A DNA stretch of 18,434 bases from a bacterium (GTDB taxonomy: Bacteria > Electryoneota > RPQS01), in the NCBI GenBank assembly GCA_020846695.1, contig JADLDM010000116.1, forward strand, positions 1 through 18,434. Reading direction: 5' to 3'. Each line of letters starts with the position of its first letter. Within the stretch, counting starts at the first letter, position 1. The position numbers and the translations under genes were made by a program. The notes below the pieces were generated by a model. It was not told the origin of the DNA. It made no database searches and saw only the letters and a program-made list of their open reading frames with translations. Below, one piece after another: positions 1,234 to 18,434 of the stretch.

Positions 1234-1270
1234 CGCCCAACTTGCTGGGCAAACCACTTGTGAATTCCTA

Positions 1271-2512: not shown

Positions 2513-2515
2513 GAC

Positions 2516-3766
2516 TTGGAAAGACTACAATCCTTACTTGCGATTCCAATCTTAATTGGAATTGCCTTCCTGCTTTCGTCCGACCGAAAAAACTTCCCGT
2601 GGCGCGCCGTGATTTGGGGCGTCGGTCTGCAAATCACCTTTGCAATTCTGATTCTCTGGACGCCGTGGGGCCGCGAACTCTTTTCCAAAGCAGGTGATCT
2701 CGTCACGCGCTTCTTAGGTTTCGCAACCGAAGGCTCGCAATTCCTCTTCGGCAATATCGTCAACCCGGAATATCAGAACACCTTCGGATTTCAATTCGCC
2801 TTCGCAATCCTGCCGACGATTATCTTCTTCGGTGCGTTCATGGGCGTGATGTATCACTTCGGAATTGTGCAACGAGTGGTGAAGGGTCTCGCATGGGTGA
2901 TGACGAAAACCATGCGCACGTCCGGTGCGGAGTCTCTCTCCTGCGCGGGAAATATTTTTCTCGGTCAGACCGAAGCGCCGCTCTTAGTGCGTCCCTTCTT
3001 GAAGACGATGACGCGCAGCGAATTGAACGCGGTGATGGTGGGAGGATTTGGAACCGTTGCCGGCGGCGTGATGGCGGGATATATTCTGCTTGGTGTCCCT
3101 GCGAAACATCTGCTCGCAGCTTCCGTCATGGCCGCGCCGGGAAGTTTGTTGTTTGCAAAAATATTTCTGCCGGAACGCGAGAAGGCTGACACGGCAGGCT
3201 CACTGCACATGCCGGAGATGCCGAAACAGGCCAACGTGATTGACGCCGCTGCCGCCGGAACGCGCGACGGTTTGGGTCTTGCCGTGAATGTCGGCGCAAT
3301 GCTCTTAACGTTCATCGCATTAATCGCGGTTGTCAATGCAGGGCTTGCGTTGATCGCGGGTTGGCTTGCAAACGGAGGAATTGCGTGGTTCCCCGAGAGT
3401 CTTCGAGAGATATTTTCCTACGTGCTATGGCCGATAGGATTCATTCTCGGCGTGCCGATTGCGGAGTGTAAGGAGTTTGCCTATCTCGTTGGAACAAAAA
3501 TCTCGATCAACGAGTTCGTCGCCTACGTCGAACTCTCCGACATGATCAAGAACAACTTGATTTCACCGCGCACCATCATGATCGCAAGCTACGCGCTTTG
3601 CGGCTTTGCGAATTTCTCTTCGATTGGAATTCAGATCGGCGGGATCGGCAGTCTTGCTCCCGAGCGGCGATCCGAACTTGCGCAGCTTGGCTTGAAGGCG
3701 ATGATTGCCGGAGCAATGGTCTCATTGCAAACTTCCGCCATCGCGGGACTGCTTGCCACAGAATAG
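2516..3766 (+). CDS. nupC: Concentrative nucleoside transporter, NupC/CNT family
   Basis: It is a 416-aa polytopic membrane protein. It aligns with E. coli NupC across the N-terminal (LLSSDRK...), central (NAVMVGGFGTVAGGVMAGY) and C-terminal (SYALCGFANFSSIGIQIGGIG) conserved blocks. It starts at a TTG codon 4 nt after the tdk stop, which suggests translational coupling. Confidence 0.88.
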   Translation: MERLQSLLAIPILIGIAFLLSSDRKNFPWRAVIWGVGLQITFAILILWTPWGRELFSKAGDLVTRFLGFATEGSQFLFGNIVNPEYQNTFGFQFAFAILPTIIFFGAFMGVMYHFGIVQRVVKGLAWVMTKTMRTSGAESLSCAGNIFLGQTEAPLLVRPFLKTMTRSELNAVMVGGFGTVAGGVMAGYILLGVPAKHLLAASVMAAPGSLLFAKIFLPEREKADTAGSLHMPEMPKQANVIDAAAAGTRDGLGLAVNVGAMLLTFIALIAVVNAGLALIAGWLANGGIAWFPESLREIFSYVLWPIGFILGVPIAECKEFAYLVGTKISINEFVAYVELSDMIKNNLISPRTIMIASYALCGFANFSSIGIQIGGIGSLAPERRSELAQLGLKAMIAGAMVSLQTSAIAGLLATE

Positions 3767-3768
3767 AA

Positions 3769-3790
3769 AAGCCCCGACGATTCAGGGCTT
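3769..3790. terminator. Intrinsic terminator hairpin between the convergent nupC and SulP genes. It mainly serves the minus-strand gene.
   Basis: The hairpin is aagccc-cgacgattca-gggctt. On the minus strand it is followed by TTTTCTATTC. On the plus strand only a weak U-tract follows. Confidence 0.6.
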
Positions 3791-3816
3791 CTCAATTCTA
3801 ACTTCTGACATTTGAT

Positions 3817-5493: not shown

Positions 5494-6040
5494 ATATAGT
5501 CTGACTTCTCAAAATAATCAAGCGCTTCGCGCGCTTGCGCTGAGTTTTTTGTTGGCGCTGCTGCTGTCGTGTCGTCACAGCGCGACCACGACCATTCTCC
5601 CCTATCGGGAAACGCAAGTCGAGAAGTCGGACATCGAAGTCGAGGACGGCGATACCTTTAACTGGCGCAATCAGCCCGTGCGCATGTTGGGAATTGACTG
5701 TCCCGAAACAAAATCACCTCATCATTCCGGCGATCAGGAACCTTGGGGCGGACGTGCGCGTGAATACCTTGAAGCGCAAGTCGCCGCCGCGAAGTCGCTT
5801 TCGATTATCCGCACGGACAAACCTGATCGCTACGGCCGCTGGTTGGGCTATCTGCTGGCCGACGGCGAGAACGTCAACGCGAAAATCATCGGTCAAGGCC
5901 TGGCCTACGAAACAATTTCTAAGTACGGGAAGCAGAAGCTCGACAAATACGCCGAGGAAGTTCTGAAAGCGGCGCGCAACGCTCCCAAACCACAGTTTGA
6001 AAATCCCTCCGACTTCCGCAAACGCAACCGCAAAGAATGA
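5486..6040 (+). CDS. Secreted thermonuclease (staphylococcal nuclease/SNase family) lipoprotein
   Basis: The SNase core is present: VEDGDTF...VRMLGIDCPE. The N-terminus carries a signal peptide with an LLSC lipobox. The start is chosen at the ATG at 5486. The six-frame ORF begins at 5456. Confidence 0.8.
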   Translation: MNKYSLTSQNNQALRALALSFLLALLLSCRHSATTTILPYRETQVEKSDIEVEDGDTFNWRNQPVRMLGIDCPETKSPHHSGDQEPWGGRAREYLEAQVAAAKSLSIIRTDKPDRYGRWLGYLLADGENVNAKIIGQGLAYETISKYGKQKLDKYAEEVLKAARNAPKPQFENPSDFRKRNRKE

Positions 6041-6888
6041 ACATGACTCCGCAGCACGCTCGCATTCGAGTGAATGAGCAAGAAGTGAATATTGAAGCCA
6101 TCGCCAAACTGATTCCCGGCGAAGCGGACGTCGCGATTATCTTGGGAAGCGGACTGGGTCCCTTCGCGGATTCGCTCGAAAATGCGAAGAGTGTGAACAC
6201 GTCGAATTTGCCCGGCTATCCGGTTTCCACCGTGCAAGGTCACTCAGGCAAGATTGTGATGGGCGCCGTCGGCAAGACCCGCGTCATGGCCTTTCAGGGT
6301 CGCGTGCATCAATACGAAGGCTACTCGCCCGAGCAGGTTGTGGTTCCCGTTCGTCTTGCACATGCCAAAGGCGCAACAAAATTGATCGTAACAAATGCAT
6401 CGGGCGCGTTCACGAAGAGATTTCACGCAGGCGATCTGCTATTGATTGAAGATCACATCAATTTGCAATTCAGGAATCCTCTGCGTGGCCCCGTAGCAAG
6501 CGGTGAATCGCGCTGGCCGGACATGTGCAACTGCTACGATCCTGACTTGAAGACACTTGCGGAGAAAGTTGCGCTCGAATTGATAATCCCCTTGAAGCGC
6601 GGCGTGTTGGGCGCCGTGCTCGGACCCTCGTATGAGACTCCCGCAGAAGTTCGCATGTTGTCGCGTCTCGGAGCCGATGCGGGCTGCATGTCCACCGTTC
6701 CCGAAGTTATCACCGCCGCGGCTCTTGGCATGAAAGTCCTGGGCATCTCCTGCGTAACTAATTCCGGCTCGGGCATCTCCGATGTTAAGTTATCACACGA
6801 GGACGTGCAGGACGTTGCGAACTCCGCGGCCGAACATTTCTCAATGCTGATTCGCGGAATACTGACAAACATGAGCACTGAACAGTGA
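6037..6888 (+). CDS. punA: Purine nucleoside phosphorylase of the trimeric PNP-I/PunA type
   Basis: The 283-aa protein has the phosphate-binding motif ILGSGLG. The conserved blocks VTNASGA, GPSYETPAEVRML and MSTVPEV are present. Its start overlaps the thermonuclease stop (ATGA). Confidence 0.85.
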   Translation: MNMTPQHARIRVNEQEVNIEAIAKLIPGEADVAIILGSGLGPFADSLENAKSVNTSNLPGYPVSTVQGHSGKIVMGAVGKTRVMAFQGRVHQYEGYSPEQVVVPVRLAHAKGATKLIVTNASGAFTKRFHAGDLLLIEDHINLQFRNPLRGPVASGESRWPDMCNCYDPDLKTLAEKVALELIIPLKRGVLGAVLGPSYETPAEVRMLSRLGADAGCMSTVPEVITAAALGMKVLGISCVTNSGSGISDVKLSHEDVQDVANSAAEHFSMLIRGILTNMSTEQ

Positions 6889-8600
6889 GATTCTTAGCCA
6901 AAGTTGTATCTATCGTTGCCGGACTTCTTCTTGCTCAGTCTATGTTGGCGCAAACTTCGTTTGCGCCCGGCGATTGGACATCATGGCGCGATTTCCGCGG
7001 AGCGCGCTCGATGGACGCAGGTGGGCACGATCTATTCGTTGCAACCGCCGGCGGAATCTTGAGTTACGATTTGGATCGCCGGCGTTGGTTGGATCCGCAA
7101 GTCATGGGCTATGGCTCGGGTCAGGCCGTCCCGATAGATGATCCGCTCCTTGTCCTCTACGATGAAGAGACCGATTACCTTTGGGTCGCGACGTATGAAA
7201 ATCTGCTTCGCTATCAACGCGGTATGGAGAAGTGGGACATCGTGCGCGCGTTTCCGTGGCCTGCCGGACATCGTCCTGTGAATATCGGTGCCGGTGGACG
7301 CAGTCTGTTTGTTGAGACGATTCCTATTCAGGTTTTCGAGGAGATCTTTGCCCCCGGAAACCCGATTCCCGATCCGCTGTGGACGCAATACGTGACGCGT
7401 TACAGCGGCGACCGCTATCTGGGCAATTTGATGCTCGCGTCACCGACCGATCCCGTTCCGACAGATACGCGCTGGCGAGGATTGGTGACAAAGATTCCGC
7501 TGGATCATGCGCGTCCTCCTGCGGGTTTTCCGATTATCTTTCCTCCATTGCCCTTTGAGTGGATGCCCGAAGGCACGCTCTACGATCAGCGCAATCGCGC
7601 CTATCCGATTACCGATTGGCTCACCGATCGCTGGAGCTATTTCTGGACGACGCATTGGGGCGCAGGGGTTATGCGCACGGATTTGCGCAGCGGTCGCGGC
7701 GAGCTGCAAATGACAGGCCCTGCAGGAAACGACATTCGCGCGATGCTCTTGACGAAGGACTCGACGTGGATGGGCGGCGAGAACGACGGCGACTTCGAGG
7801 GAATCAGCGTTGCCGATCGCGACATGCTGGAGTGGAGCTATTTCAGTCGTCGTGATGATCAGCAGATTCGTTCCACTTCCGTGAATGACTTCGCCGAAAC
7901 CTCGACAAGAATTTTCGTCGCAACTTCGGACGGTTTGCTTGCGTATACGCCGAAGAGCAAGAGTTGGAAGCGCTACGACGTGCAGGACGGACTGCATTCA
8001 CAGCAGGTCAATGCGCTTGTCGTAACGCATGGCAAGCTCTGGATCGGAACAAGTGATGGACTTGCGGTGATGGATTTGCAGACCAACATCATCACGCGCA
8101 TTCCGCAGCAAGGTTTTCTGCTCTCCGGCATTCGCGATCTCGCCGCCGATGGAACACAAATCTGGGTCGGCACGCAAGGCGGGCTCGCTTCAGTTTCTGT
8201 CACTACACACGAAGTGTCCGTGCAGGCTCTCGATCCCGGTTTGATTAATCTTCCCGTTGTCTCTGTTTCGCTCTTTGGTTCAGAGTTGTGGCTTGCAACG
8301 GAGCAGGGCGTGATGCATCGCTCATCGAATGGCGATACCGAGAGTTGGCTTTCCGATGTCTGGCTCAAGGAATCCGAGCCACAGTGTATTCTCGCGTCCG
8401 ATCCCTATATTTGGGTCGGCACAGACAACGGACTCTGGCGGCACAATGTCGCAACAAACGAGTGGATTTCCTATTCACGCTCCGATGGTCTCGTGGATAA
8501 CCGCGTCTATTGCATCGAAGAAGACGGCGGCGATCTCTTGATCGGCACGGCTTCCGGCCTCACGCGCTTCTCTTGGAATCGCCCCGGCGCAGCACGATAA
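6885..8600 (+). CDS. Secreted beta-propeller protein carrying two-component-regulator-propeller (Reg_prop-like) repeats. It has no kinase or other output domain.
   Basis: It starts at a GTG that overlaps the PNP stop. A signal peptide is present (MRFLAKVVSIVAGLLLAQSMLAQ). The motif aromatic-hydrophobic-G-T-x-x-G-L recurs more than six times (LWIGTSDGLAV, IWVGTQGGLAS, LWLATEQGVMH, IWVGTDNGLWR, LLIGTASGLTR, IFVATSDGLLA). Confidence 0.7.
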   Translation: MRFLAKVVSIVAGLLLAQSMLAQTSFAPGDWTSWRDFRGARSMDAGGHDLFVATAGGILSYDLDRRRWLDPQVMGYGSGQAVPIDDPLLVLYDEETDYLWVATYENLLRYQRGMEKWDIVRAFPWPAGHRPVNIGAGGRSLFVETIPIQVFEEIFAPGNPIPDPLWTQYVTRYSGDRYLGNLMLASPTDPVPTDTRWRGLVTKIPLDHARPPAGFPIIFPPLPFEWMPEGTLYDQRNRAYPITDWLTDRWSYFWTTHWGAGVMRTDLRSGRGELQMTGPAGNDIRAMLLTKDSTWMGGENDGDFEGISVADRDMLEWSYFSRRDDQQIRSTSVNDFAETSTRIFVATSDGLLAYTPKSKSWKRYDVQDGLHSQQVNALVVTHGKLWIGTSDGLAVMDLQTNIITRIPQQGFLLSGIRDLAADGTQIWVGTQGGLASVSVTTHEVSVQALDPGLINLPVVSVSLFGSELWLATEQGVMHRSSNGDTESWLSDVWLKESEPQCILASDPYIWVGTDNGLWRHNVATNEWISYSRSDGLVDNRVYCIEEDGGDLLIGTASGLTRFSWNRPGAAR

Positions 8601-8710
8601 GTGCTCCGTCGCCGAGCCGGGTTCGCGCTCGATCACTCATTAAACGGCGCCAATCTTCCGCGCGTAACCCGGCCGAAATCCGACTGTCTCAGATTTCTAG
8701 TTTTCTGAAT

Positions 8711-8738
8711 TCATACCTCATACCTCTAACCTCATACC
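8711..8738. repeat. Four tandem heptamers (TCATACC, TCATACC, TCTAACC, TCATACC) lying 5 nt upstream of a small ORF
   Basis: Direct reading gives tcatacc tcatacc tctaacc tcatacc. Confidence 0.85.
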
Positions 8739-8743
8739 TTTCC

Positions 8744-9004
8744 ATGTTCTCTCCCGTTCACGCAGGCACATTTTATCTCAGCAGGAAAGACCTCGATGAA
8801 GGTCGCTCAGTCAAAGTTTGGTACATGGCGGATGGCATCAAGCGCGGCTGGCATTGCACCCCCGTCACCGCAGGCAAGGAAGACGAGCACGGCTATCCGC
8901 TGAGTCCCGATCTTTGGGACTACCTCTATACGGAGGAAGAACTCCGAGCAGGCAAAGATACGCGCCGGGAACTTTCCCGCGAGCATTCAGGTTATACCAA
9001 GTAG
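8744..9004 (+). CDS. Small hypothetical protein of 86 aa
   Basis: The internal ATG of ORF 8510..9004 lies beyond the end of the upstream gene. The codons have high GC3, which suggests coding. The sequence is MFSPVHAGTFYLSRKDLDEGRSVKVWYMADGIKRGWHCTPVT... I do not recognise a family. Confidence 0.35.
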   Translation: MFSPVHAGTFYLSRKDLDEGRSVKVWYMADGIKRGWHCTPVTAGKEDEHGYPLSPDLWDYLYTEEELRAGKDTRRELSREHSGYTK

Positions 9005-9495
9005 ATAGGAAGAGTGAAAGCGTCTCGGGGTTCGCATTCTGCCGATTGCATTGCCCTTTGCGGGCATTGTTGAATAGCTCGACACGTTCGCAGACCATGT
9101 AGCCACAGCGACGCGCATTTCTTCCTCCTCATTGGCCCGGGAATCGCGCGTTGCGTTTCTGCGGGCCTTCTGCTTTTTGAAACGCAGCGTCTCAGCCCAA
9201 TTCATCAATCCTAAATCATAACTCATCATTTAACAGAATCTTACAGCGTCCGCGCGAAGGCTGGCCTCTCGCCTCCCCCCGTAGGCTCCCAAAATGCAAG
9301 AGGATGCGTAGTACTGGATGGCGCTTGCGGCAAAGAATTTGCTGAATATTAATTAGGCTTACACGCGACGCTCATGTTGCGGCTGCCAAACAACCCAAAA
9401 CCGCGAGAAAGATGCCTTGCGTCTCATGAACCGGTTACCTAAATTGAGCAGTAGCATGTCTTTCGCCAAATGGCGACAGTTGAATTGAGGACCTT

Positions 9496-11949
9496 ATGCA
9501 AAACAAATTCTCCCTTCGCGTTCAACAAGTGATTCAGTACTCCCGGGAGGAGGCGCTCCGGCTTGGGCACGACTTCATCGGCACAGAACACCTGCTCTTG
9601 GGAATCATTCGCTTGGGAGATGGTCTTGCAGTGCAGATACTTCACAACCTCGGATGTGAACTGGATGAGTTGCGCGAATCCGTGGAAGAGATGGTGGATA
9701 CCTCGCGCGGCACGATGAAGATCGGGAATATCCCTTTCACCAAGCGCGCCGAAAAAGTCCTCAAGCTCTCATATATTGAAGGTAAGAGTTACTCGTCGGA
9801 CATCATCGGAACCGAGCATCTGCTGCTCGCGCTGCTCAAGGAAGAAGATTCGATGGCCGCGCAGGTGCTGCACGGCTTCAATGTCACCTACGAAAACGTC
9901 AAGACGGAGCTGGACAATCTGCTTCGCGGCTCGGGCCAGCAAGCGCCTGCCGCGCCTGCGGAAAAGACCAAGACTCCCAATCTCGATCACTTCTCTCGCG
10001 ATCTCACCAAGCTTGGGCGTGAAAACAAACTCGATCCGATTATCGGACGCGACAAGGAAATCGAGCGCGTCGCTCAGATTCTCTCGCGCCGCAAGAAGAA
10101 TAACCCCGTTTTGATTGGCGAGCCGGGCGTCGGTAAGACCGCCATCGCCGAAGGTCTCGCTCTGCGCATCGTGCAGCAGCGCGTCTCGCCGATTCTTTTC
10201 GGCAAGCGTGTCGTCGCTCTCGACTTGGGCTCGATTGTAGCAGGCACGAAATATCGCGGACAGTTCGAAGAGCGCATCAAGTCTATCATGACCGAGATTG
10301 AAAAGAATCCCGACATTATTCTTTTCATTGACGAATTGCACACCATCGTCGGAGCCGGAAGCGCGTCCGGCTCGCTCGATGCCTCAAACATGTTTAAGCC
10401 CGCATTGGCTCGCGGTGAACTCCAATGCATCGGCGCGACCACGCTGAATGAATATCGTCAGTCCATCGAAAAGGATGGAGCGCTGGAACGCCGATTCCAA
10501 AAAGTTATGGTGGATCCGCCGTCCGTCGAGGATTCCATTCAGATTCTCATGGGCCTTCGCGAAAAATATGAAGAGCATCACGGCGTGAAATTCAGTGACG
10601 AAGCGATTGAGGCCGCCGTGCGCTTCGCAGATCGCTACATCACGGATCGTTTTCTCCCAGATAAGGCTATTGACGTGATTGACGAAACCGGATCAAGCGT
10701 CCGCATTTCGCACATCGTCATTCCCGAGCGCATCATCGAAATCGAAAAGCAGATCGAAAATGTGCGCCACGAAAAGGAAGACCTGGTCAAGCGGCAGGAA
10801 TATGAAAAGGCCGCCATGCTGCGCGACAAAAAGGTCAAGCTCGAAACCATGCTCCGCGAAGAGAAAGAGCGCTGGGAGCGCTCCGAAGCGCGTCCCACTC
10901 TCGTCGTGACCCCTGAAGAAATCGCCAACACGGTTTCGCGTATGACCGGCATTCCCGTGCAGCGCGTTGCGTCAGGCGAAGGCGAACGTCTCCTGAAGAT
11001 CGGCGAATCGCTCGGCAAAAAAATTCTCGGACAAAAGGAAGCGATCGAGACGATTGCGAAAGCGCTTCGTCGCGCGCGTTCAGGGTTGAAGAGCCCCACG
11101 CGTCCGATTGGAAGCTTCATGTTCCTCGGAACTCCCGGTGTCGGTAAGACCGAACTCGCGCACGTGCTCGCGGAATATCTTTTTAATGATCCTGAAGCGC
11201 TCATCCGCATTGACATGAGCGAGTATAGCGAGAAGTTCAACGTCTCACGTCTGATCGGCGCGCCTCCCGGCTATGTCGGCTATGATGAAGGCGGACAGCT
11301 CACGGAAAAAGTGCGACGCAAACCCTACAGCGTTGTGCTGCTTGACGAAGTCGAAAAAGCTCACCCCGACGTCTTCAACGTGCTGCTTCAGGTTCTTGAT
11401 CACGGAGAACTCACTGACGGAACGGGACAGAAAGTTGATTTCAAGAACACAATCTTGATCCTGACGTCAAACCTCGGAACTCGCGAAGCTGCAAAGTCTT
11501 TGGATTTCGGTTTCGGCGGAGCGAAAGCTGAAACGCATGACAAGATTTCCGGAAAGATGATGGAAGAGGTTAAGCGCGCGTTCCGACCTGAGTTTCTGAA
11601 TCGCTTGGATGAGATCGTCGTCTTCAACATGCTCACGCGTGAAGCGATTGAAGAAATTCTCAACAAGTATGTTGATGAAATCAACAAGCGTCTTGTGGAT
11701 CGCGGCTTGACCGTTCAGTTGACTGCGAAGGCCCGTGATTATCTTGTGGATAAGGGCTTCAAACCTGAAGTCGGCGCGCGTTTGATGCGTCGCACGGTCG
11801 AAAAATACGTCGAGGATCCGCTCGCGGAAGAAATTCTCCGCGACCGCTTCCATGAAGGCTCCTCGATTCAAGTCACTTTGAAGAACGAAGAACTCTCCTT
11901 CCGCGAGTTCAAGGAAAAGGTCCCCGAAGAATCCGCCGAAACCGAATAA
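9496..11949 (+). CDS. clpC: ATP-dependent Clp protease ATP-binding subunit ClpC (class III HSP100)
   Basis: Two N-terminal Clp_N repeats are present. AAA+ module 1 carries Walker [15 protein letters not shown]-like middle motif follows ([31 protein letters not shown]). AAA+ module 2 carries [11 protein letters not shown], and a C-terminal D2-small domain is present. The protein is 817 aa. Confidence 0.95.
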
Positions 11950-11970
11950 GTATTTCCTTGTGTTGTTGTA

Positions 11971-12006
11971 GGGGCGGCCCGTGCTTTTCAAACACCGTGG
12001 CCGCCC
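11971..12006 (+). terminator. Intrinsic terminator after clpC
   Basis: The GC stem is GGGCGGCC...GGCCGCCC (8 bp) around a roughly 19-nt loop. It is followed by ttcttatgg. Confidence 0.6.
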
Positions 12007-12024
12007 TTCTTATGGTTAGACACT

Positions 12025-12036
12025 TGCATATACAAA
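12025..12036. promoter_or_regulatory. Near-palindromic candidate MarR operator upstream of the marR-like gene
   Basis: TTGCATATACAA differs at one position from the perfect palindrome TTGTATATACAA at 12546..12557. It lies about 20 bp upstream of the ATG at 12058, next to a TATAAT hexamer at 12037-12042. Confidence 0.45.
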
Positions 12037-12057
12037 TATAATTGCGTATCTTCCCCC

Positions 12058-12486
12058 ATGGGCTGTGATCAATCCACTTACTGCCGCTGTCTGTACTATT
12101 CCGCAAATGCGCTGGCCCGTATCCTCACGCGGATGGGAGAGGAGGAGTTTGCGCCCGTAGGGTTGCCGCCGTCTTATGCCTTCCTCTTGATGAACGTCAA
12201 CGCGCATCCCGGCAGTACGCCCACGGAAGTCTCGCATCACATGATGCTCGCGCCTTCTACGGTTACTCGCCTCGTGGAAAAGATGGAGGACGCGGGTTAT
12301 CTTCGCCGGAAACGTGAAGGCAAGGAAATCCACATCTTCCCGACCGCGAAAAGCAGGCGGCTCGACCCGAAAATCAAGTCTTGCTGGCGCGCGCTTCACG
12401 ACCGCTACGTGAAACTTCTGGGCAAAGAGGCAAGCGCTCGCCTCACTGCGGACGTCTTTGAAGCGGCGCTCGCGCTGGAACCTTGA
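12058..12486 (+). CDS. MarR-family transcriptional regulator
   Basis: The 142-aa protein has a wHTH region TPTEVSHHMMLAPSTVTRLVEKMEDAGYLRRKREGKEIHIFPTAKSRRL. This matches the MarR architecture of recognition helix, wing and dimerisation helices. Confidence 0.85.
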   Translation: MGCDQSTYCRCLYYSANALARILTRMGEEEFAPVGLPPSYAFLLMNVNAHPGSTPTEVSHHMMLAPSTVTRLVEKMEDAGYLRRKREGKEIHIFPTAKSRRLDPKIKSCWRALHDRYVKLLGKEASARLTADVFEAALALEP

Positions 12487-12545
12487 ACCACTCGTAACGG
12501 GCCGCCGAGCCGGGTTAAGACTTTGCGCAAAACGGCCGAAGCATA

Positions 12546-12557
12546 ATTGTATATACA
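12546..12557. promoter_or_regulatory. Perfect 12-bp palindrome TTGTATATACAA, a candidate MarR operator upstream of the oxidoreductase gene
   Basis: The sequence is its own reverse complement. It lies 35 bp upstream of the ATG at 12592 and just upstream of an AAGGAGAA ribosome-binding site. Confidence 0.5.
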
Positions 12558-12591
12558 ACTAACATTCTCACTATCAAATCAAGGAGAACCC

Positions 12592-13275
12592 ATGAAAATC
12601 GGAATACTCGGAACCGGAATGGTCGCGCAGTCTCTCGCGCCCAAACTCGTCGAACTCGGACATGATGTGCTGCTCGGCACGCGCGATGTGAAGGAATCGC
12701 TCGCGCGCACGGGAACCAATGGTTGGGGTCATCCCGAGTTTGGCGACTGGCACAAGCAAAATTCGCACATCAAGGTCGGAACCTTTGCGGATGCGGCGGT
12801 GCACGGCGAACTCGTGATGAATGCCTGTTCCGGACACGGGTCGCTTCCCGCTTTGAAAGCGGCGGGCGCGAACAATCTGAACGGCAAAATTCTGGTGGAC
12901 ATCTCAAACCCGCTCGATTTCTCAAACGGATTTCCACCCTCACTCTTCGTCGGCAACACGGATTCTTTGGGCGAGCAAATTCAGCGTGAGTATCCAAGTG
13001 TGAAGGTCGTGAAGACCCTCAACACCGTGAACGCGATGCTGATGACGAATCCTAACATGCTCGGAGGCGGCGATCACACGATTTTTGTATCGGGCAATGA
13101 TGCGCAGGCGAAAGAAGCCGTGATTGACTTCCTGAAATCGCAATTCGGCTGGCGTGACGTGATAGACTTCGGCGACATCACCAACGCGCGCGCGACGGAG
13201 AGCTATCTCCATCTCTGGATCCGAATGTTCGGCCAATTTCAAAACCCCATGGTCACTATCAAAGTCCTGAAATAG
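12592..13275 (+). CDS. NADP-binding oxidoreductase of the F420-dependent NADP reductase/ProC-like Rossmann family
   Basis: The N-terminal dinucleotide fold MKIGILGTGMVAQSLAPKLVELGHDVLLGTRD is typical of the NADP_oxidored_coenzyme_F420 family. A good SD (aaggagaa) precedes the start. The six-frame ORF begins at 12547. Confidence 0.7.
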   Translation: MKIGILGTGMVAQSLAPKLVELGHDVLLGTRDVKESLARTGTNGWGHPEFGDWHKQNSHIKVGTFADAAVHGELVMNACSGHGSLPALKAAGANNLNGKILVDISNPLDFSNGFPPSLFVGNTDSLGEQIQREYPSVKVVKTLNTVNAMLMTNPNMLGGGDHTIFVSGNDAQAKEAVIDFLKSQFGWRDVIDFGDITNARATESYLHLWIRMFGQFQNPMVTIKVLK

Positions 13276-13287
13276 CGCCTTTCCATT

Positions 13288-13345
13288 TCTTCTCCCTTTC
13301 CCCTCGATGCGAGGGGAAAGGGGCAGGGGATAGGGGTCTCTCTCT
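13288..13345. repeat. Family A intergenic repeat, copy 1. A C-rich arm pairs with a G-rich arm, and a G4-tract tail follows.
   Basis: The hairpin CCCTTTCCCCTCG-atg-CGAGGGGAAAGGG (13294-13322) is followed by GCAGGGGATAGGGG. This gives four GGGG runs with 2-3 nt loops, a canonical G-quadruplex motif. Confidence 0.8.
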
Positions 13346-13391
13346 GAAATATCTCTTTCTGTTTTCAAATTCTGATTTGGAATTTCATCCG

Positions 13392-13694
13392 ATGATCAAG
13401 CACATCGTCCTCTGGAAACTTCACGACCACGCAGACGGTCATGACAAAAAAGAAAACGCGCTCCGTGTGAAGCGGGCGTTGGAAAACATGCGCGGAAAAG
13501 TTGAAGGCTTGCTCTCGCTTGAATTCGGAATCAACCAGCTTCCCGGTGATCAGGCTTACGACATTTCCCTTCTCTGCGAGTTCACCGATTGGACTGCTCT
13601 TGAATCCTATCGCGTGCACCCGCTTCACCAATCCGTCATCGAACTTCTGAACAAAGTCCGCTCCCACCGCATCGTGGTAGACTACGAAATCTGA
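13392..13694 (+). CDS. Dabb-family stress-responsive alpha/beta-barrel protein
   Basis: The roughly 100-aa protein MIKHIVLWKL...VEGLLSLEFGIN...DISLLCEFTDWTALESYRVHPLHQ matches the Dabb (stress responsive A/B barrel) pattern. The start is chosen at the ATG at 13392. The six-frame ORF begins at 13377. Confidence 0.7.
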   Translation: MIKHIVLWKLHDHADGHDKKENALRVKRALENMRGKVEGLLSLEFGINQLPGDQAYDISLLCEFTDWTALESYRVHPLHQSVIELLNKVRSHRIVVDYEI

Positions 13695-13839
13695 CTCTCT
13701 TCTCCCTTTCCCCTCGATGCGAGGGGAAAGGGCGGGGGATAGGGGTTTCTTGCGTGATTGACTACGAAATCTAGTCTCTTCCCTTCCCCCTCGATGCGAG
13801 GGGGAAGGGGCAGGGGATAGGGGTTTCTTCCGTCGCCGA
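13680..13839. repeat. Tandem duplication of about 80 bp repeated twice. Each unit holds the last 15 nt of the Dabb CDS (GACTACGAAATCT) plus a family A repeat copy (copies 2 and 3).
   Basis: Unit 1 (13680-13759) and unit 2 (13760-13839) are about 85% identical. Both carry CCCTTTCCCCTCGATGCGAGGGGAAAGGG(C/G)...GGGGATAGGGGTTTCTT. Unit 2 continues into the tail motif CGTCGCCGAGCGGGG. Confidence 0.85.
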
Positions 13840-13890
13840 GCGGGGATTAAGGACGAAGTCCGGTTCCCTGCCGGGATCTGACTCTGACTG

Positions 13891-13913
13891 TAAATTTGAA
13901 TTTGTAAATTTGA
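13891..13913 (+). promoter_or_regulatory. Duplicated TAAATTTG boxes that match the Bacteroidota sigma-A -7 consensus TAnnTTTG. Candidate promoter for the SPFH gene.
   Basis: The sequence gTAAATTTGAatttgTAAATTTGAg lies about 100-120 nt upstream of the ATG at 14010. An AAGGAG ribosome-binding site sits at 13994-13999. Confidence 0.4.
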
Positions 13914-14009
13914 GTCTTTCTTCCCCCCATTTGCCTTTCCCCTTCAATTTCGCCATCTTGAGAGACAGCACCATCGTTTCTCAACGTTCTTCATAAGGAG
14001 TTCCAGACT

Positions 14010-14828
14010 ATGGAAACCTATCGCGCAGCTCCCCCCAGCGCCGGCCTTGTTCTACGCATCATCGGTGCGCTGATCATCGTCGTACTCATCTTTCGCTGTT
14101 TCGTGGTGATTCCTGCCGGTCATGTCGGAGTGGTGGATTTCTTCGGTAAGGTTTCGGATTCCACTTTGAAGCCCGGCGTCAATTTCCGAAATCCGCTCGC
14201 GCAGATTCACAAATTTTCGGTGAAGACTCAGGAGAAGAAAGAGGTCATGGTGGTTCCGTCCAAAGAGGGACTCTCTGTGACCTTGGAAGTCTCGGTGCTC
14301 TATCACTTGAATCCCGAAACAGCTGCCGATGTGTACAAGACCATCGGCCCTAACTACGAGACGATTATTCTTGAACCGAATTTCCGCTCGATTACGCGTG
14401 GCGTGACTGCGGGTTACGAAGCACGCGCTCTCTACACCTCTGAACGCGAGTTGCTCGCCGCGCAAATTAAGGAAGCGCTTGAAAAAACCGTCGCCCCGCG
14501 CGGCATCACGATTGAAGCAACTCCTTTGCGTCAAGTCGGACTTCCGCCGAATTTAACTGCTTCGATTGAGCAGAAGCTTCAATCCGAGCAGGAATCGCAG
14601 CGCATGGAGTTTATCTTGACGAAGGAGTCTCAGGAAGCCGAGCGCAAACGCATCGAGGCGCAGGGCATCGCCGACTTTCAAAAAATCGTTGCACAAGGTC
14701 TGAGTGATTCCTATCTTCGCTGGAAGGGAATCGAAGCGACCGAAAAACTCGCAGCATCGGCCAACGCAAAGACCGTCATCATCGGCTCCGGCAAAGACGG
14801 CTTGCCCGTCATCCTCGGCGGCCAATAG
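14010..14828 (+). CDS. SPFH/band-7 (prohibitin/HflC-like) membrane protein
   Basis: An N-terminal transmembrane helix is followed by a band-7 domain (VIPAGHVGVVDFFGKV...VLYHLNPETAADVYKTIGPNYETIILEPNFRSITRGV). The C-terminal region is a coiled coil. The protein is 272 aa and has a good RBS. Confidence 0.85.
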   Translation: METYRAAPPSAGLVLRIIGALIIVVLIFRCFVVIPAGHVGVVDFFGKVSDSTLKPGVNFRNPLAQIHKFSVKTQEKKEVMVVPSKEGLSVTLEVSVLYHLNPETAADVYKTIGPNYETIILEPNFRSITRGVTAGYEARALYTSERELLAAQIKEALEKTVAPRGITIEATPLRQVGLPPNLTASIEQKLQSEQESQRMEFILTKESQEAERKRIEAQGIADFQKIVAQGLSDSYLRWKGIEATEKLAASANAKTVIIGSGKDGLPVILGGQ

Positions 14829-14853
14829 GCTGAGATCTTTACTTCGGATGTAG

Positions 14854-14884
14854 GGGCGGGTCCCAGACCCGCCCGCTTTCTCTG
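14854..14884 (+). terminator. Intrinsic terminator after the SPFH gene
   Basis: The stem GGGCGGGTC-cca-GACCCGCCC is a perfect 9 bp. It is followed by gctttctct. Confidence 0.65.
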
Positions 14885-14885
14885 T

Positions 14886-15087
14886 CCCCCTGCTCTGCGG
14901 GGGGACTACAGGGGGGTGTCCGCTCACATACCTTTCGTAGGGACACGATACGCTTGCCCTCGTAAGGGTCGTGTCAGCTCGCTACACTGGCGGCGGCCTC
15001 CGGCCGTCTTAGTCTTCTGGCTGTAGAGGCGGATGGCGATCCGCCCGCCTACCATTCGTAGGGACACGATAAATCGTGTCCGTCCGG
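14886..15087. repeat. Mosaic hairpin repeat block X1. It reads GTCCCCC...GGGGGAC hairpin, long GGACACGAT hairpin module, 54-nt core, then short GGACACGAT hairpin module.
   Basis: The long module runs 14929-14977 (cctttcgtagggacacgatacgcttgccctcgtaagggtcgtgtc). The core runs 14991-15044 and is identical to 16537-16590. The short module is 15055-15082 (ttcgtagggacacgat-aa-atcgtgtcc). Confidence 0.85.
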
Positions 15088-15165
15088 TTTCTTCTCCTCC
15101 CTTCCCACTCGTCGCGAGGGGAAAGGGCCGGGGTTAGGGGTTCTCTCTCGTCGCCGAGCAGGGCT
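15088..15165. repeat. Family A repeat copy 4 with its tail motif
   Basis: The sequence is cttctcctcccttcccactcgtcgcgaggggaaagggccggggttaggggttctctctcgtcgccgagcagggc. The G tracts are GGGG AAA GGG CC GGGG TTA GGGG. Confidence 0.8.
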
Positions 15166-15258
15166 CGAACGTATTTGCCGAGTCCATTGCATCCATCGTC
15201 CGCGCGCAACGCGTCAGGCCCGACAATCAGTCGGTTGTTTCAACTCCGAGCGTACATC

Positions 15259-16428
15259 ATGCGAGAATTCATCAGACCAATCTTGATTCTCTTCGTACTT
15301 CTGCTTGCAGCGCTATTTGCAGGCTGTGCCAACGATCACGATGACGGTGGCACCACGTCGCCTCAGTCTCTTGAACAAGAGTTGCAGCAGATTGTCTCAT
15401 CGTCAATCTCTCCGTCCGCGGACGTGCACAGCGCTGTGGTCGAAGTTGAGGATCCCGCGCGAGACTTCTCTTGGCGCGGAGCGGCAGGCTTCGCGAATCC
15501 GCAAACTTCGGAGCGAATGACAATCAACCATCGTTTCAGAATTGCCAGCGTCACGAAGCCGATGACTGCAGTACTGATCCTTCGTCTCACGGAGGAAGGT
15601 GTACTCGATCTTGATCATACCGCATGGGCATACTTGGGAGACTCAAGCGGTGTGAATTTCGATAGCCTTATGATCTACCAGGGAACCTCGTACGGGCGAG
15701 CGATTACGCTGAAGCGTTTGCTGCGCCATACGAGCGGATTGCCCGATTACGTCTTCGACGGGCCGACCAACATCTACGGTTTGACGGACTTCCTTTCCTA
15801 TGCGCTGAGTCATCCCGACAAGCAATGGGAGCCCTATGAAATGGTACAATGGTCCTATCGTCATCTTGCCGCAGTTGGAGTACCCGGCCAGCGTTATCAC
15901 TACAGTGATACGGGCTATGTCCTGCTGGGGATGGTGGCCGAACAAGTAACGGGTCAAGAGCTTCCCGATTTGTACCGGCAATACATTTTTGATCCCTTGG
16001 GAATGGATGTATCCTATCTCGAATTCCACGAATCGCCGGTCGCGGGCGGGGCGCTGTCGCACGCCTATTTTGATCAACTGGACGCGATGAGTTACAACAC
16101 GTCATTTGATTGGGCGGGCGGTGGTGTCGTCAGTTCGGCGGAGGATATCACACGTTTCATTCGAGCGGTTGCAGAGGGTTCGATCTTCACAAATCCCGGC
16201 TCGCATGATATCATGTTCGACTGGATGGATATCGGAACGGGAGAGTTCTACGGATTGGGGATAGAGAAGCGCGTTACAAGTCTCGGTGAATTTGTTGGTC
16301 ATCCGGGCGTCTATGGCTCCTTCGCTTATTATTGGATGAACCGCGGCATCACTTGCACGGGAACAATGAATCAACTCACTGCGGATGTAGAGGGTTTCCT
16401 TCTGGACATCATGTACGTCATGGACTGA
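15259..16428 (+). CDS. Lipoprotein serine hydrolase of the beta-lactamase/transpeptidase superfamily (class C beta-lactamase-related)
   Basis: The signal peptide carries an LFAGC lipobox. An SxxK active-site motif (SVTK in RIASVTKPMTAVLIL) and a YSD element (HYSDTGY) are present. The start is chosen at the ATG at 15259. The six-frame ORF 15076.. extends back across the repeat DNA and is not credible there. Confidence 0.75.
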   Translation: MREFIRPILILFVLLLAALFAGCANDHDDGGTTSPQSLEQELQQIVSSSISPSADVHSAVVEVEDPARDFSWRGAAGFANPQTSERMTINHRFRIASVTKPMTAVLILRLTEEGVLDLDHTAWAYLGDSSGVNFDSLMIYQGTSYGRAITLKRLLRHTSGLPDYVFDGPTNIYGLTDFLSYALSHPDKQWEPYEMVQWSYRHLAAVGVPGQRYHYSDTGYVLLGMVAEQVTGQELPDLYRQYIFDPLGMDVSYLEFHESPVAGGALSHAYFDQLDAMSYNTSFDWAGGGVVSSAEDITRFIRAVAEGSIFTNPGSHDIMFDWMDIGTGEFYGLGIEKRVTSLGEFVGHPGVYGSFAYYWMNRGITCTGTMNQLTADVEGFLLDIMYVMD

Positions 16429-16490
16429 GTGTCCGCGCGAGCAAACATCTCTTTCCTTTGCAAATATAAAGACACAAGAAAAGCGCGACC

Positions 16491-16650
16491 ATGTCTTCGT
16501 AAGGACACATTGCATCGTGTCCGCTCTCATCACTGCCGGCGGCCTCCGGCCGTCTTAGTCTTCTGGCTGTAGAGGCGGATGGCGATCCGCTTACATACCT
16601 TTCGTAGGAACACGATTCGCTTGCCCTTGTAAGGGTCGTGTCCGCGTATC
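16491..16650. repeat. Mosaic hairpin repeat block X2. It has the same modules as X1, but the hairpin modules are in swapped order: short, then core, then long.
   Basis: The short module is 16497-16522 (tcgtaaggacacattgcatcgtgtcc). The core 16537-16590 is 54/54 identical to 14991-15044. The long module is 16597-16645 (cctttcgtaggaacacgattcgcttgcccttgtaagggtcgtgtcc). Confidence 0.85.
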
Positions 16651-16660
16651 TATACAAAAC

Positions 16661-16696
16661 AAAATAGCGCAACCACATTGGTCGCGCTATTTGTAT
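16661..16696. terminator. Bidirectional intrinsic terminator between the convergent hydrolase and T9SS-cargo genes
   Basis: The stem AAATAGCGC...GCGCTATTT is 9 bp with a 13-nt loop that holds an inner ACCA/TGGT pair. U-rich runs lie on both sides (plus: tttgtatcttc; minus: ttttgttttgtat). Confidence 0.6.
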
Positions 16697-16735
16697 CTTC
16701 TCCCCCTCCCGGTCGCGGGGAATCAAGGGGGGTTC
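16696..16735. repeat. Family A repeat copy 5, a degenerate variant
   Basis: The sequence is cttctccccctcccggtcgcggggaatcaaggggggttct. The C arm pairs with the G arm, but only two or three G tracts remain. Confidence 0.6.
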
Positions 16736-16811
16736 TGTCACCCGTAGCCTGCCCTCGTAAGGGTAAGGGCCTATTTCACAAACCCGACCCCCTTCAACTC
16801 TCTCGTTCTGG

Positions 16812-16878
16812 GTTCATATTTCATATATCATATTTCATCCCTCTCCCCCACTCATCGTTCATCATTCATCGCTCATCG
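16812..16878. repeat. Two blocks of four tandem TCATNNN heptamers immediately downstream of the minus-strand T9SS-cargo gene
   Basis: Block one is ttcatat ttcatat atcatat ttcatcc (16812-16839). Block two is tcatcgt tcatcat tcatcgc tcatcgc (16851-16878). Confidence 0.85.
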
Positions 16879-18174
16879 CTATCTCACCACCGCCATCTTC
16901 TTCTGCATCATCTTCTCTCCCGCCTGCAATCTGTAGAAATAAATCCCCGAAGAAAGCTCTCCCGCATCAAAATTCACGCGATGCACTCCCGCGCTCATCA
17001 CACCACTTGAAAGCGTCGCCACCTCTTCACCCAACAGATTGTGCAGCGTGAGCGTGACGTCGGAAACTTCCGGCAGCAGAAACTCAATCGTCGTGGACGC
17101 ATTAAACGGATTCGGATAGTTCTGCAAGAGCATAAACTCCGAAGGCACTTCATTCGCGCGCGGCGTGGCGGAAACCTGCCCAACCTGCTCGCGCGATCCG
17201 TCCAAGTCCACCGATGTCAGCGTGTAAACATACTCGCGCCCGTTTTCAAGAGCCTCATCTCGCCACTGATATCTATTCCCCGTCGCCCGGTTCGTCGCCT
17301 GAACATTCGCCACCACCGCGCCATCCCGCTCAATCTCAAAGTGGCTCATCTCACTCTCCGCCCCCGTCACCCACGACAAAACAACGCTCTCATCTCGTGC
17401 AATCGCAGAGAAGGAGAGTAGCTCAACGGGCAAAGACGCGTCGGAGCATATCCATTGTGGATTGTTGATCGTTGAGCCATGAATCGCATTTGAGGAAGCG
17501 TCATGCACCGTTGAGCCGTTCGATTCATCGAAATGATAGAGAAGCACAGTATTCTCGTCTGGAATGAATTTTTCGTTTGGAGGATTGAAGTTAGTTAAGT
17601 ATCGTGCGACAGCCGAGATTCGAAATTCGTCGATAATTGCCGAAAGTCGTTCGCTCTCCCCTCCGGTCCATGCGTGATGGTTCAAATAGGCGCCACTGAC
17701 GACATTGCCAACTGTGCCACTAATCGACATGGGTGTAGATGCAGCAAGTTCACCGTCAATAAACAGTGTGACAAATGAGCCATCCCAGACGCCTGCGATG
17801 TGATGCCATTCATTCAATGTAAGATCGTGTGGCCAATCAGCCCAATAACCCTCGATATCGCTCTGATGGAACCCGAAGGTAAGGTGTGCTCCATTCCAAT
17901 CACAGCACGAATTCGACACAAATAGTTGAATCGTGCCTGCATCATACACGCTGTTGCTCTTATTAAAGATGTTCTCTTCATAGCAAGGCACTGGGGCAAG
18001 TTGTTTGAACCAGCACTCAACAGTGATCTGACTGAATTCGCTCAGCTCAGGTGAATTTGGTATGGTGACATAGTTGCCTGTCCAGCACTCACCAGTGAAC
18101 CTGAGGGCGTTTCCGCCGGGGCACTGCGCCCACACACTCCCGCACACGATCACCAAAGCAATCACGAGTTTCAT
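16879..18174 (-). CDS. T9SS-sorted secreted protein carrying an N-terminal LamG/concanavalin-A-like lectin domain
   Basis: It has a signal peptide (MKLVIALVIVCGSVWAQ) and a roughly 200-aa domain with LamG-like features (WHHIAGVWDGSFVTLFIDGEL). The C-terminal roughly 80 aa are typical of the Por secretion-system C-terminal sorting domain (LLQNYPNPFNASTTIEF...GIYFYRLQAGE...KKMAVVR). Confidence 0.8.
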   Translation of the reverse strand: MKLVIALVIVCGSVWAQCPGGNALRFTGECWTGNYVTIPNSPELSEFSQITVECWFKQLAPVPCYEENIFNKSNSVYDAGTIQLFVSNSCCDWNGAHLTFGFHQSDIEGYWADWPHDLTLNEWHHIAGVWDGSFVTLFIDGELAASTPMSISGTVGNVVSGAYLNHHAWTGGESERLSAIIDEFRISAVARYLTNFNPPNEKFIPDENTVLLYHFDESNGSTVHDASSNAIHGSTINNPQWICSDASLPVELLSFSAIARDESVVLSWVTGAESEMSHFEIERDGAVVANVQATNRATGNRYQWRDEALENGREYVYTLTSVDLDGSREQVGQVSATPRANEVPSEFMLLQNYPNPFNASTTIEFLLPEVSDVTLTLHNLLGEEVATLSSGVMSAGVHRVNFDAGELSSGIYFYRLQAGEKMMQKKMAVVR

Positions 18175-18434
18175 TTCATTCCCCTATCAATTTGAATTGC
18201 GCTTCTATTTTCATTTCGAGAAAATCTCTTCTTACCGCTTCGCCGTTGTGGCTGTCCACAGCCGCCACGCATCCTAATCTTCTAGGCGTGACCTCCCGGT
18301 CACGCACACACTCACCGAATCACCTGCTTCCTAACTTACATCGCGCCCCCCCGTCTTTCAAGCGCTTTTCAAGCTTCTCATCAAATTCATCCACCTGACC
18401 CACACTTCTCTCCCGCTTTGTGTCCATAATCCCA

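Follow-up and report, generated by a model that had tools for sequence, protein, structure and literature searches.

Intergenic repeats with the architecture of an intrastrand triplex motif in a KSB1-related bacterium, and their relatives in phage-like contigs

The locus described here raises the question of what keeps four closely spaced runs of G together in every copy of a short intergenic repeat. It lies on contig JADLDM010000116.1 (GenBank assembly GCA_020846695.1), of which positions 1 to 18,434, the whole stretch of DNA that was analysed, are referred to as the window. An original prediction made for this DNA had described the repeat, here called family A, as an element with two mutually exclusive folds, a hairpin and a G-quadruplex (G4), that could act on mRNA 3' ends. 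Our analysis demonstrated that the four G runs are two runs of a purine arm and two runs of its mirror copy, and the “G4 arm” is best explained as the purine arm together with the reverse-Hoogsteen arm of an intrastrand triplex motif. Judged from its sequence, family A is probably a local cluster of class II “intrastrand triplex motif” repeats of the BoxC/PIT/TMECO type known from Escherichia coli.

Family A is a repeat of about 50 nt that is present in four copies (c1 to c4), all on the plus strand and all intergenic, with pairwise identities of 76-86% over 50 nt. A profile built from the four copies found exactly those four in the window (E 1e-18 to 1e-21). A fifth copy had been proposed at 16,696, and this site misses E<=10 with the family profile; it belongs to a separate element made of a C run and two G runs. 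Each copy can be read as a pyrimidine arm (CCCTTTCCCC), a complementary purine arm (GGGGAAAGGG), a short loop and a mirror copy of the purine arm (GGGGATAGGGG), in which the tail mirrors the hairpin arm with an A>T change. The first loop, between the two hairpin arms, is itself a 3-bp mini-stem (TCG/CGA around an ATG triloop). The 13-bp hairpin (CCCTTTCCCCTCG/CGAGGGGAAAGGG) is perfect in c1-c3. Folded as single-stranded DNA, it gave -15.8 to -17 kcal/mol (z -3.6 to -4.3) and left the G-rich tail unpaired, and as RNA it gave z about -3. In c4 the hairpin has two mismatches and folded no better than shuffles (z -0.1 as RNA, -0.6 as DNA), so that the hairpin predicted earlier for the whole family holds for three copies of the four. 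One compensatory T>C / A>G change distinguishes the hairpin of c3 from those of c1 and c2; as only three distinct sequences could be compared, it carries no statistical significance. A canonical G4 motif (four runs of at least three G, loops of 1-7 nt) was found once in each copy and nowhere else on either strand of the 18.4-kb window, which bears out the presence of a G4-capable arm in four copies. Rfam covariance models gave no real match in the window; the only one touching the repeats was a chance-level mir-3718 match (E 0.1-0.7) across c2-c3.

The order of parts in family A has a known counterpart. The BoxC repeats of E. coli were rediscovered as potential intrastrand triplex (PIT) elements and later renamed TMECO (Holder et al. 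2015, PMC4666352; earlier Bachellier et al.; Hoyne et al. 2000). They are laid out as a pyrimidine arm, a purine arm and a reverse-Hoogsteen arm, with the pattern 5'-CCCTCNCCC N3-6 GGGNGAGGG N3 GGGNGAGGG-3', which is a class II intrastrand triplex motif (PMC4666352). Their G-rich part could make a three-tetrad G4, but nuclear magnetic resonance (NMR) of oligonucleotides showed a triplex and not a G4 (PMC4666352). The elements are intergenic, show no strand bias and occur at times as inverted doublets; their loci were rearranged between E. coli strains more than control loci, and Holder et al. found no association with phages (PMC4666352). In our own survey of 5426 complete genomes of E. coli, none lacked the TMECO sequence, and the median number of places per genome was 19.

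The window was scanned for class II motifs with an ITxF-like procedure of our own (stems of 6-10 nt with at most one mismatch, loop 1 of up to 12 nt, loop 2 of up to 6 nt), with first-order Markov shuffles as a control. In ITxF itself, class II is defined by stems of 6-15 nt, at most one mismatch and loops of 1-6 nt, with a third arm that is antiparallel and makes G•G, A•A and T•A contacts. Five motifs were found, namely c1-c4 and an element at 14885-14916, compared with 0.05 in the shuffles. Ten triplets can be formed by c1 and c2 (0-1 mismatch, none in c2) and also by c3, where the third arm was not updated to match the compensatory hairpin change and one Hoogsteen mismatch results; c4 can form eight, with one mismatch. 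Loop 2 of the window copies (2-5 nt) lies inside the ITxF range. At the level of sequence, the three-part architecture was demonstrated in all four copies, and the tail obeys the constraints to be expected of a third strand in reverse-Hoogsteen pairing.

To what extent these constraints are a property of a family was assessed from relatives elsewhere. Viral contigs were scanned with a tail-based pattern, which led to three contigs, and with two hairpin-only patterns that were blind to the tail, which returned 99 and 15 stretches. Among 112 unique hairpins, the tail was present on exactly one side in 67, on both sides in one and on neither side in 44, and it was stereotyped as NN-GGGG-AT(A)-GGGG(G)-T. 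The 68 tailed copies lie in 58 flank contexts on 47 contigs with GC contents from 0.43 to 0.73, and every one of them retains four G runs. They define a superfamily with the core CCCTT(T)CCCC-loop-GGGG(A)AAGGG-NN-GGGGAT(A)GGGG, in which hairpin complementarity is held across variants at 89/103 sites. Near-identical to family A are copies in L042 (CCCTTCCCCCTCGATGGGGGAAGGGGCAGGGGATGGGGGT), L117 (CCCTTTCCCC...GGGGAAAGGGTCGGGGATAGGGGTCT) and L106, and L139 carries a C6/G6/G6 element. Portal, prohead protease and HK97-type capsid genes mark L057 and L109 as phage or gene transfer agent (GTA)-like; L117 encodes terminase, portal, protease, capsid, neck and tape-measure proteins, and L028 has a DUF5131 phage gene. 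In a variant from metagenome contigs (L004, L006, L007, L012, L016), loop 2 is replaced by a GCCGC-AAA-GCGGC mini-hairpin while the tail GGGGGATGGGGG is kept; this mini-hairpin and the mini-stem in loop 1 of the window copies both preserve the fold-back geometry. The family is accordingly dispersed, as had been proposed, and the four-G-tract pattern is kept by copies beyond the locus. No description of the wider superfamily was found in the literature searched.

Searches closer to the source organism returned less. When the GTDB species genomes and the JGI metagenome collection, neither of which includes the source organism, were scanned with the exact hairpin pattern, no true family A copy came up, and the matches were unrelated hairpins or a remoter variant. 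BLAST of the element gave no match in INPHARED phages and two weak ones in plasmids, to which the low-complexity filter may have contributed, and its six-frame translations matched nothing in the protein collection at E<=10. A diverged family copy was present in the related locus L023, from a metagenome-assembled genome (MAG), 1.2 kb beyond the ortholog of the F420-type oxidoreductase; family A was absent from L024 and L025, two loci found via the type IX secretion system (T9SS) sorting domain, a search that led mainly to short pieces of DNA of unrelated organisms, and about 130 kb from relatives held only two class II motifs. In L023, an intergenic gap of 830 nt also carries, on the minus strand at 16800-17040, a promoter-like TTGACA...TATATT and after it a GC-rich stretch that looks structured; the diverged copy lies downstream, and Rfam gave no match at the gathering threshold.

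The relatives in viral contigs allowed the relation between the purine arm and the tail to be tested. The arms of the window copies are symmetric and compatible with a mirror (antiparallel) third arm. The common superfamily arm GGGGGAAGGG is asymmetric, and the register is therefore testable. With G•G, A•A and T•A as the allowed purine-motif triplets, 10/10 triplets were reached in the mirror register at 41/160 oriented half-sites and in the direct register at none. Among 60 tailed sites, the mirror register was better in 51, tied in 9 and worse in 0; with one representative per context, it was better in 42 and equal in 15, and the direct register was better in 1. Length followed the same relation: an AA arm was accompanied by a 2-nt tail block in 38/46 contexts and an AAA arm by a 3-nt block in 12/12 (Fisher p=1.4e-7), and the G-run lengths of the tail mirror those of the purine arm. 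The inner block of the tail, which would be “loop 3” of a G4, is composed of A (0.47), T (0.51) and hardly any C (0.02); 68/69 copies have only A/T in it. No such restriction holds for “loop 2”, which joins the purine arm to the tail (C 0.44, T 0.40, A 0.15). As “loop 3” is A/T-restricted and follows “loop 1” in length, with mirrored run lengths as well, G4 needs alone do not explain the conservation, and the tail constraints argue against a selected G4 at mRNA 3' ends. We infer that ordinary duplication or template switching does not make mirror repeats, and that selection on structure is therefore indicated by their persistence. Two other roles for the tail were rejected. If the tail paired with the pyrimidine arm in Watson-Crick fashion, in place of the purine arm, a direct repeat of the purine arm would be expected, and the tail is instead its mirror image. 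An RNA-capable triplex of the pyrimidine motif, formed on the C strand, predicts an A-only tail block, which was seen in 3/69 copies, each time as a single A and never as AA.

How such an element might act can be outlined as follows. When the G strand becomes single-stranded, in replication, in a transcription bubble or in repair, the hairpin would form, and its major groove could take up the tail through triplets of the types G•G.C, A•A.T and T•A.T. The two folds that had been regarded as mutually exclusive are thereby recast as a hairpin with a docked third strand. The docked structure would be expected to stall polymerases and to favour slippage and illegitimate recombination, and by this route the elements would mark variable regions at gene boundaries and may even give rise to them. 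In the window, such instability would account for the tandem duplication that gave c2 and c3 and for three accessory genes that are each bounded by repeats.

Orientation relative to genes was called in the viral contigs from open reading frames (ORFs), a crude procedure that is noisy in GC-rich contigs. The G strand was antisense to co-directional flanking genes in 26 copies and sense in 13, lay between convergent genes in 11 and between divergent genes in 5, and could not be called in 16. Nine inverted doublets occur in this set, and their tails always face each other. Within 40 nt of the element, an ATG-initiated ORF of at least 80 codons had its start on the C strand in 34/76 copies and on the G strand in 7/76, and in phages the spacing from element to ATG was mostly 7-23 nt with a Shine-Dalgarno sequence between them. 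Copies are co-oriented within phage contigs (10/10 in L117, 6/6 in L118, 6/6 in L078). The structural operon of L117 has a copy in almost all of its gaps, and there the G-rich strand is antisense to the genes. The window copies have the reverse orientation to their local genes and are not beside gene starts, and an mRNA role of the G strand is therefore not a family property. It had also been stated that the element always lies within 10-90 bp of a gene's 3' end; c1-c3 lie close behind a gene (Table 1), c4 and the site at 16,696 do not. An action on mRNA 3' ends is disfavoured by a superfamily in which the G strand is mostly antisense and often lies just upstream of a start on the other strand. 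As a separate observation, L117 (1-14137, IMGVR_UViG_3300025010_000320) has its ten copies within 14 kb of a tailed-phage structural module, and L118 and L078/L137 are further contigs of this kind.

Several points weigh against family A as a member of the BoxC/PIT/TMECO class or against its action through instability. The strict TMECO pattern has 0 matches in the window. Loop 1 measures 9-12 nt in the 10-nt register, above the 1-6 nt of ITxF; it falls to 3-7 nt if the stem is counted as 11-13 nt, but the stem then takes in a non-purine position. In E. coli, a stable triplex was not seen by in vivo footprinting with dimethyl sulfate (DMS), and the triplex has to compete with duplex DNA (PMC4666352). 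Not more than about three subfamilies distinct in sequence discriminate the register, namely the main type, L065 (G5AAAG3 / G3TATG6) and L058 (G6AAG3-4 / G4TTAG5), and copy counts are not independent events because copies share ancestry. Finally, the co-orientation in phages and the tight placement upstream of ribosome-binding sites hint at a strand-specific function that a passive “instability” model leaves unexplained.

Two explanations at the level of RNA were weighed against the triplex motif. The hairpin could be the only working part, as a REP-like 3' stabiliser or weak terminator in the window and as an intercistronic 5' hairpin by the ribosome-binding site in phages, with the tail merely extending the stem through G.U pairs. 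The minimum free energy structure as RNA indeed lengthens the 13-bp stem to about 22-24 pairs between the G tail and a CU-rich flank (-33.6 to -37.6 kcal/mol, z about -3), UUUCUU follows this extended stem in c2 and c3, and the well-kept complementarity, the mixed orientation (a hairpin works either way) and the phage purine arm 7-23 nt upstream of an ATG are all as expected. It explains neither why the tail mirrors the purine arm, as pairing with a flank would need just G/C content, nor why C is excluded from the inner block of the tail; the 5' flanks of GC-rich copies are not CU-rich, and most superfamily copies have no U tract after them. We therefore regard the hairpin on its own as unlikely. 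An intrinsic terminator in the strict sense was rejected, as the stem is not directly followed by a U tract: in c2 and c3 only the G.U-extended stem has UUUCUU after it, the 13-bp stem runs into the G tail, and a terminator scan of the window did not call the family A sites. The original prediction itself, a hairpin/G4 switch in RNA or non-template DNA that tunes stability or termination at mRNA 3' ends and in which the four G runs are selected, appears quite improbable. It is favoured by a canonical G4 motif on the sense strand of all four copies, downstream of plus-strand genes, by the four G runs in every tailed superfamily copy, and by the fact that purine-motif triplexes cannot form in RNA, which leaves a transcribed G strand only the hairpin or the G4 (PMC4666352). 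With the G4 model of ViennaRNA, a four-tetrad RNA G4 was isoenergetic with the extended hairpin in c1 (-34.0 vs -33.9) and c3 (-37.7 vs -37.6); in c2 and c4, which each have a G3 run, the G4 arm alone reached only -12.6 against -33.6 and -23.4 for the hairpin, so that an RNA G4 may form in the first two copies and is far weaker in the others. A G4 does not require the mirror register, the A/T-only inner block or the length covariation. The excess of antisense G strands in the superfamily speaks against it, as do two elements of like architecture in the window (at 14885 and 16700) that have only two G runs, and so does the E. coli precedent, where NMR gave a triplex and PIT elements had no terminator or promoter activity in earlier work cited by Holder et al. 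(PMC4666352).

The remaining explanations concern how the copies arose. A non-autonomous mobile element, either a miniature inverted-repeat transposable element (MITE) or a repetitive extragenic palindrome (REP) moved by a REP-associated tyrosine transposase (RAYT) or an IS200-type transposase, with hairpin and tail as the recognition site, would fit the 58 genomic contexts in several host GC classes, the presence or absence of copies between strains, the 8- and 13-nt direct repeats that flank c1 and c2, and the GTAG-headed REP-like palindromes that also occur in the window. Flanking direct repeats of at least 7 nt were, however, not enriched (13.7% against 9.2% in controls, 73 copies), and there is therefore no sign of classical transposition; the 13-nt repeat at c2 belongs to the tandem duplication. 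The window has no transposase or RAYT gene, and mobility of this kind is very improbable. A MITE was rejected for the lack of terminal inverted repeats beyond the central hairpin and of enriched target-site duplications, and a RAYT-REP because none of c1-c4 has a GTAG or GGAG head 5' of the palindrome. An integron attC site was likewise rejected, as c1-c4 contain no GTTRRRY core and the window no integrase gene. That family A is purely a local duplication product is hardly credible: four copies do lie within 1.9 kb, with c2 and c3 derived from a tandem duplication, and true copies were missing from GTDB and the metagenome collection and class II motifs scarce in relatives, but the four copies differ by 14-24%, and near-identical elements in many unrelated viral contigs, together with the copy in L023, contradict it.

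A broader proposal is that the undescribed superfamily of triplex motifs is a functional, strand-specific part of tailed-phage genomes, that copies in chromosomes such as that of the KSB1 relative were seeded from or exchanged with phages, and that the mirror arm is selected for a three-stranded structure acting on transcription, replication or packaging. We put this forward as a tentative possibility. If true, selection on the triplex register itself would have its first comparative evidence in the asymmetric arms. The G-rich triplex strand would then lie on the template strand, 7-23 nt upstream of a start codon, in almost every gap of the structural operon in some phages.

The features of the window discussed above and below are listed in Table 1.

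Table 1. Repeats and genes in the right-hand part of the window (positions in the 18,434-nt stretch)
Feature	Position	Strand	Context and parts
MarR gene	12058-12486	+	
F420-type oxidoreductase gene	ends 13275	+	
Family A, c1	13288-13337	+	12 nt past F420-oxidoreductase stop, 55 nt ahead of Dabb ATG; CT-rich 5' flank TTCTTCT; pyrimidine arm 13294-13306 (CCCTTTCCCCTCG), loop ATG 13307-13309, purine arm 13310-13323, loop CA 13324-13325, mirror (third-strand) arm 13326-13336 (GGGGATAGGGG)
Dabb stress protein gene	13392-13694	+	stop codon 13692-13694
Tandem duplication, unit of ~77 nt	13680-13832	+	Dabb 3' end (gactacgaaatct, stop changed TGA>TAG) and element; gave c2 and c3
Family A, c2	13698-13747	+	begins directly past Dabb stop codon; pyrimidine arm 13704-13716, loop 13717-13719, purine arm 13720-13732, loop C(G) 13733, mirror arm 13734-13745 (GGGGGATAGGGG)
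Family A, c3	13775-13824	+	80 nt past Dabb gene 3' end; pyrimidine arm 13781-13793 (CCCTTCCCCCTCG), loop 13794-13796, purine arm 13797-13810 (CGAGGGGGAAGGGG), loop CA 13811-13812, mirror arm 13813-13823 (GGGGATAGGGG)
Module CGTCGCCGAGC(N)GGG	13831-13849	+	fused to 3' side of c3
SPFH/Band7 protein gene	14010-14828	+	
Element of like architecture, unrelated sequence	14885-14916	+	TCCCCC - loop - GGGGGGA - loop - AGGGGGG; kept in strain L019
Family A, c4, partly decayed	15093-15142	+	265 nt past Band7 stop, ~120 nt ahead of beta-lactamase-family ATG (15259); pyrimidine arm 15099-15111 (CCCTTCCCACTCG, two mismatches), loop 15112-15114, purine arm 15115-15127, loop CC 15128-15129, mirror arm 15130-15140 (GGGGTTAGGGG)
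Beta-lactamase-family lipoprotein gene	15259-16428	+	
C-run/G-run/G-run element (alleged fifth copy)	16700-16732	+	CTCCCCCTCCC-GGTC-GCGGGG-AATCAA-GGGGGG
T9SS-sorted LamG protein gene	16879-18174	-	

The tandem duplication includes, as read from the sequence, the last 13-23 nt of the Dabb gene, and because of it c2 and c3 are not independent copies. Direct repeats were noted around the copies: CTGAAATA(g/t)C flanks c1 (13268-13277 / 13346-13355) and ATCTGACTCT flanks the c2-c3 block (13688-13697 / 13875-13884). The module fused to c3 is likewise fused to the 3' side of c4 (15149-15167) and stands alone past gene ends at 8607-8625 and 12500-12518. An order of C run, loop, G run, spacer and second G run is common to the elements at 14885-14916 and 16700-16732 and to an element downstream of Band7 in L019, a contig of a 96%-identical strain; these elements have only two G runs and therefore cannot form a canonical G4. 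The element at 16700-16732 is the same in L019 and partly recognisable in L024. A further group of repeats consists of palindromes with a GTAG head, which form a mosaic resembling bacterial interspersed mosaic elements (BIMEs) at 14840-15085 and 16490-16650, including GTAGGGGCGGGTCCCAGACCCGCCC at 14849-14875 and a TTCGTAGGGACACGAT...GTGTCC family at about 14930, 15055, 16496 and 16600. The mosaic contains a direct repeat of 102 nt (14969-15070 / 16515-16616, 89% identical) and brackets c4 and the beta-lactamase-family gene. A GTAG head is also found on the palindrome GTAGGGGCGGCCCGTGC...GTGGCCGCCC at 11965-12012, directly past the ClpC stop codon.

The ClpC protein of the window is 91-92% identical to proteins of two uncultured-bacterium MAGs, with remoter matches named KSB1, and T9SS sorting domains are encoded in the window. 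The window is syntenic with the related loci L022 and L023 between 1.9 kb and about 13.2 kb; this synteny is lost at about 13199, immediately ahead of c1, and neither locus has the Dabb, Band7 or beta-lactamase-family genes. Exact-protein look-ups gave no record for ClpC and Dabb, and for Band7 only three short contigs, all from the 96%-identical strain. In that strain (contigs L019 and L020), the two REP blocks are joined directly, c4 and the beta-lactamase-family gene are missing, and the element downstream of Band7 (L019) is a different one from that of the window. All triplex-type repeats of the window are found inside one accessory stretch of 3.6 kb, where the GTAG-type repeats of the mosaic also occur. 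Their position in a strain-variable stretch agrees with the link between TMECO and variable regions, as an association and not as a cause. For the source genome, the repeats mark an accessory, strain-variable stretch with single genes bracketed by direct repeats, where gene gain and loss are to be expected.

Elsewhere in the window, a stretch of 43 nt (1-43 and 690-732, 91% identical) is common to two neighbouring small ORFs, which are probably paralogous small genes. A weak RsmY-like covariance-model match (28 bits, E 0.0019, gathering score 57) at 3768-3879 on the minus strand falls on the 3' end of a sulfate permease gene and is probably due to chance. Two intergenic regions, at 8690-8745 and 16810-16880, contain short tandem motifs that are AT-rich and heptamer-like (CATACCT...; TTCATAT... 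/ TCATCG...).

By its architecture, family A is a new sequence member, in a new phylum, of the intrastrand-triplex kind of repeat known since the 1990s. This has a bearing on surveys of G4 motifs, as recurrent bacterial “G4 motifs” may consist of a purine arm and its mirror arm; counting these as G4, or assaying the G arm alone, would be misleading. It also bears on the function of BoxC/PIT elements, a question since the 1990s, for which the superfamily provides several handles: asymmetric arms, many natural variants including insertions that preserve the fold-back, and a strongly non-random position by ribosome-binding sites in phages.

The arrangement in L117, L118 and L078 resembles that of the SAS/ESAS (start-associated sequences and their extended form) of cluster K mycobacteriophages. 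These are reportedly repeated motifs with an inverted-repeat part that stand directly upstream of many start codons and are co-oriented with transcription. They differ in sequence from the superfamily, and no third arm of the triplex type is known to have been described for them. Unlike SAS/ESAS, the window copies are not beside gene starts and have the opposite orientation.

With hairpin/G-quadruplex switches and with the repeats of potential quadruplex sequences (PQS) found in bacteria (PMC4692102), family A shares four G runs, short loops and a competing Watson-Crick hairpin that overlaps them. Unlike in PQS repeats, the mirror register, the A/T-only block and the pyrimidine arm of the superfamily exceed G4 needs, and the orientation to genes is not fixed. 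The G4 repeats of Xanthomonas and Nostoc are tandem simple-sequence repeats and not dispersed elements linked to a hairpin (PMC4692102). Family A was rightly described from the start as a small, structured intergenic repeat of the REP/BIME kind: it is short, GC-rich, imperfectly palindromic and intergenic, it occurs in clusters and mosaics and differs in presence between strains, and true GTAG-headed palindromes adjoin it in the window. Unlike REP, BIME and REPIN elements, it lacks the GTAG/GGAG head, has an extra non-palindromic G tail, does not form inverted doublets in the window and has no RAYT gene within the window.

The closest likeness is to BoxC/PIT/TMECO. The TRIP1 repeats of E. coli were considered as relatives as well and rejected, as they are unrelated to triplexes. 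Family A has the same order of pyrimidine arm, loop, purine arm, short loop and G-rich mirror arm, with T or A facing the A of the arm in the third arm (GGGTGAGGG vs GGGAGAGGG in E. coli, GGGGATAGGGG vs GGGGAAAGGG in family A). It is of similar length (about 40-50 nt), strictly intergenic and found in strain-variable regions, carries a canonical G4 motif as a by-product, and occurs in single copies or, as in the nine doublets of the viral set, inverted pairs. Its sequence differs from that of TMECO, its arms have 10-11 nt instead of 9, its loop 1 of 9 nt has a 3-bp stem of its own, and its host is a KSB1-related bacterium instead of a proteobacterium. Unlike TMECO, the superfamily has abundant copies in phage and GTA-like contigs, and as many as 10 of them, all co-oriented, lie within 14 kb. 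The main-type arm of the superfamily (G5AAG3) is asymmetric, unlike the symmetric motif of E. coli, and it is this asymmetry that allows the mirror register to be tested.

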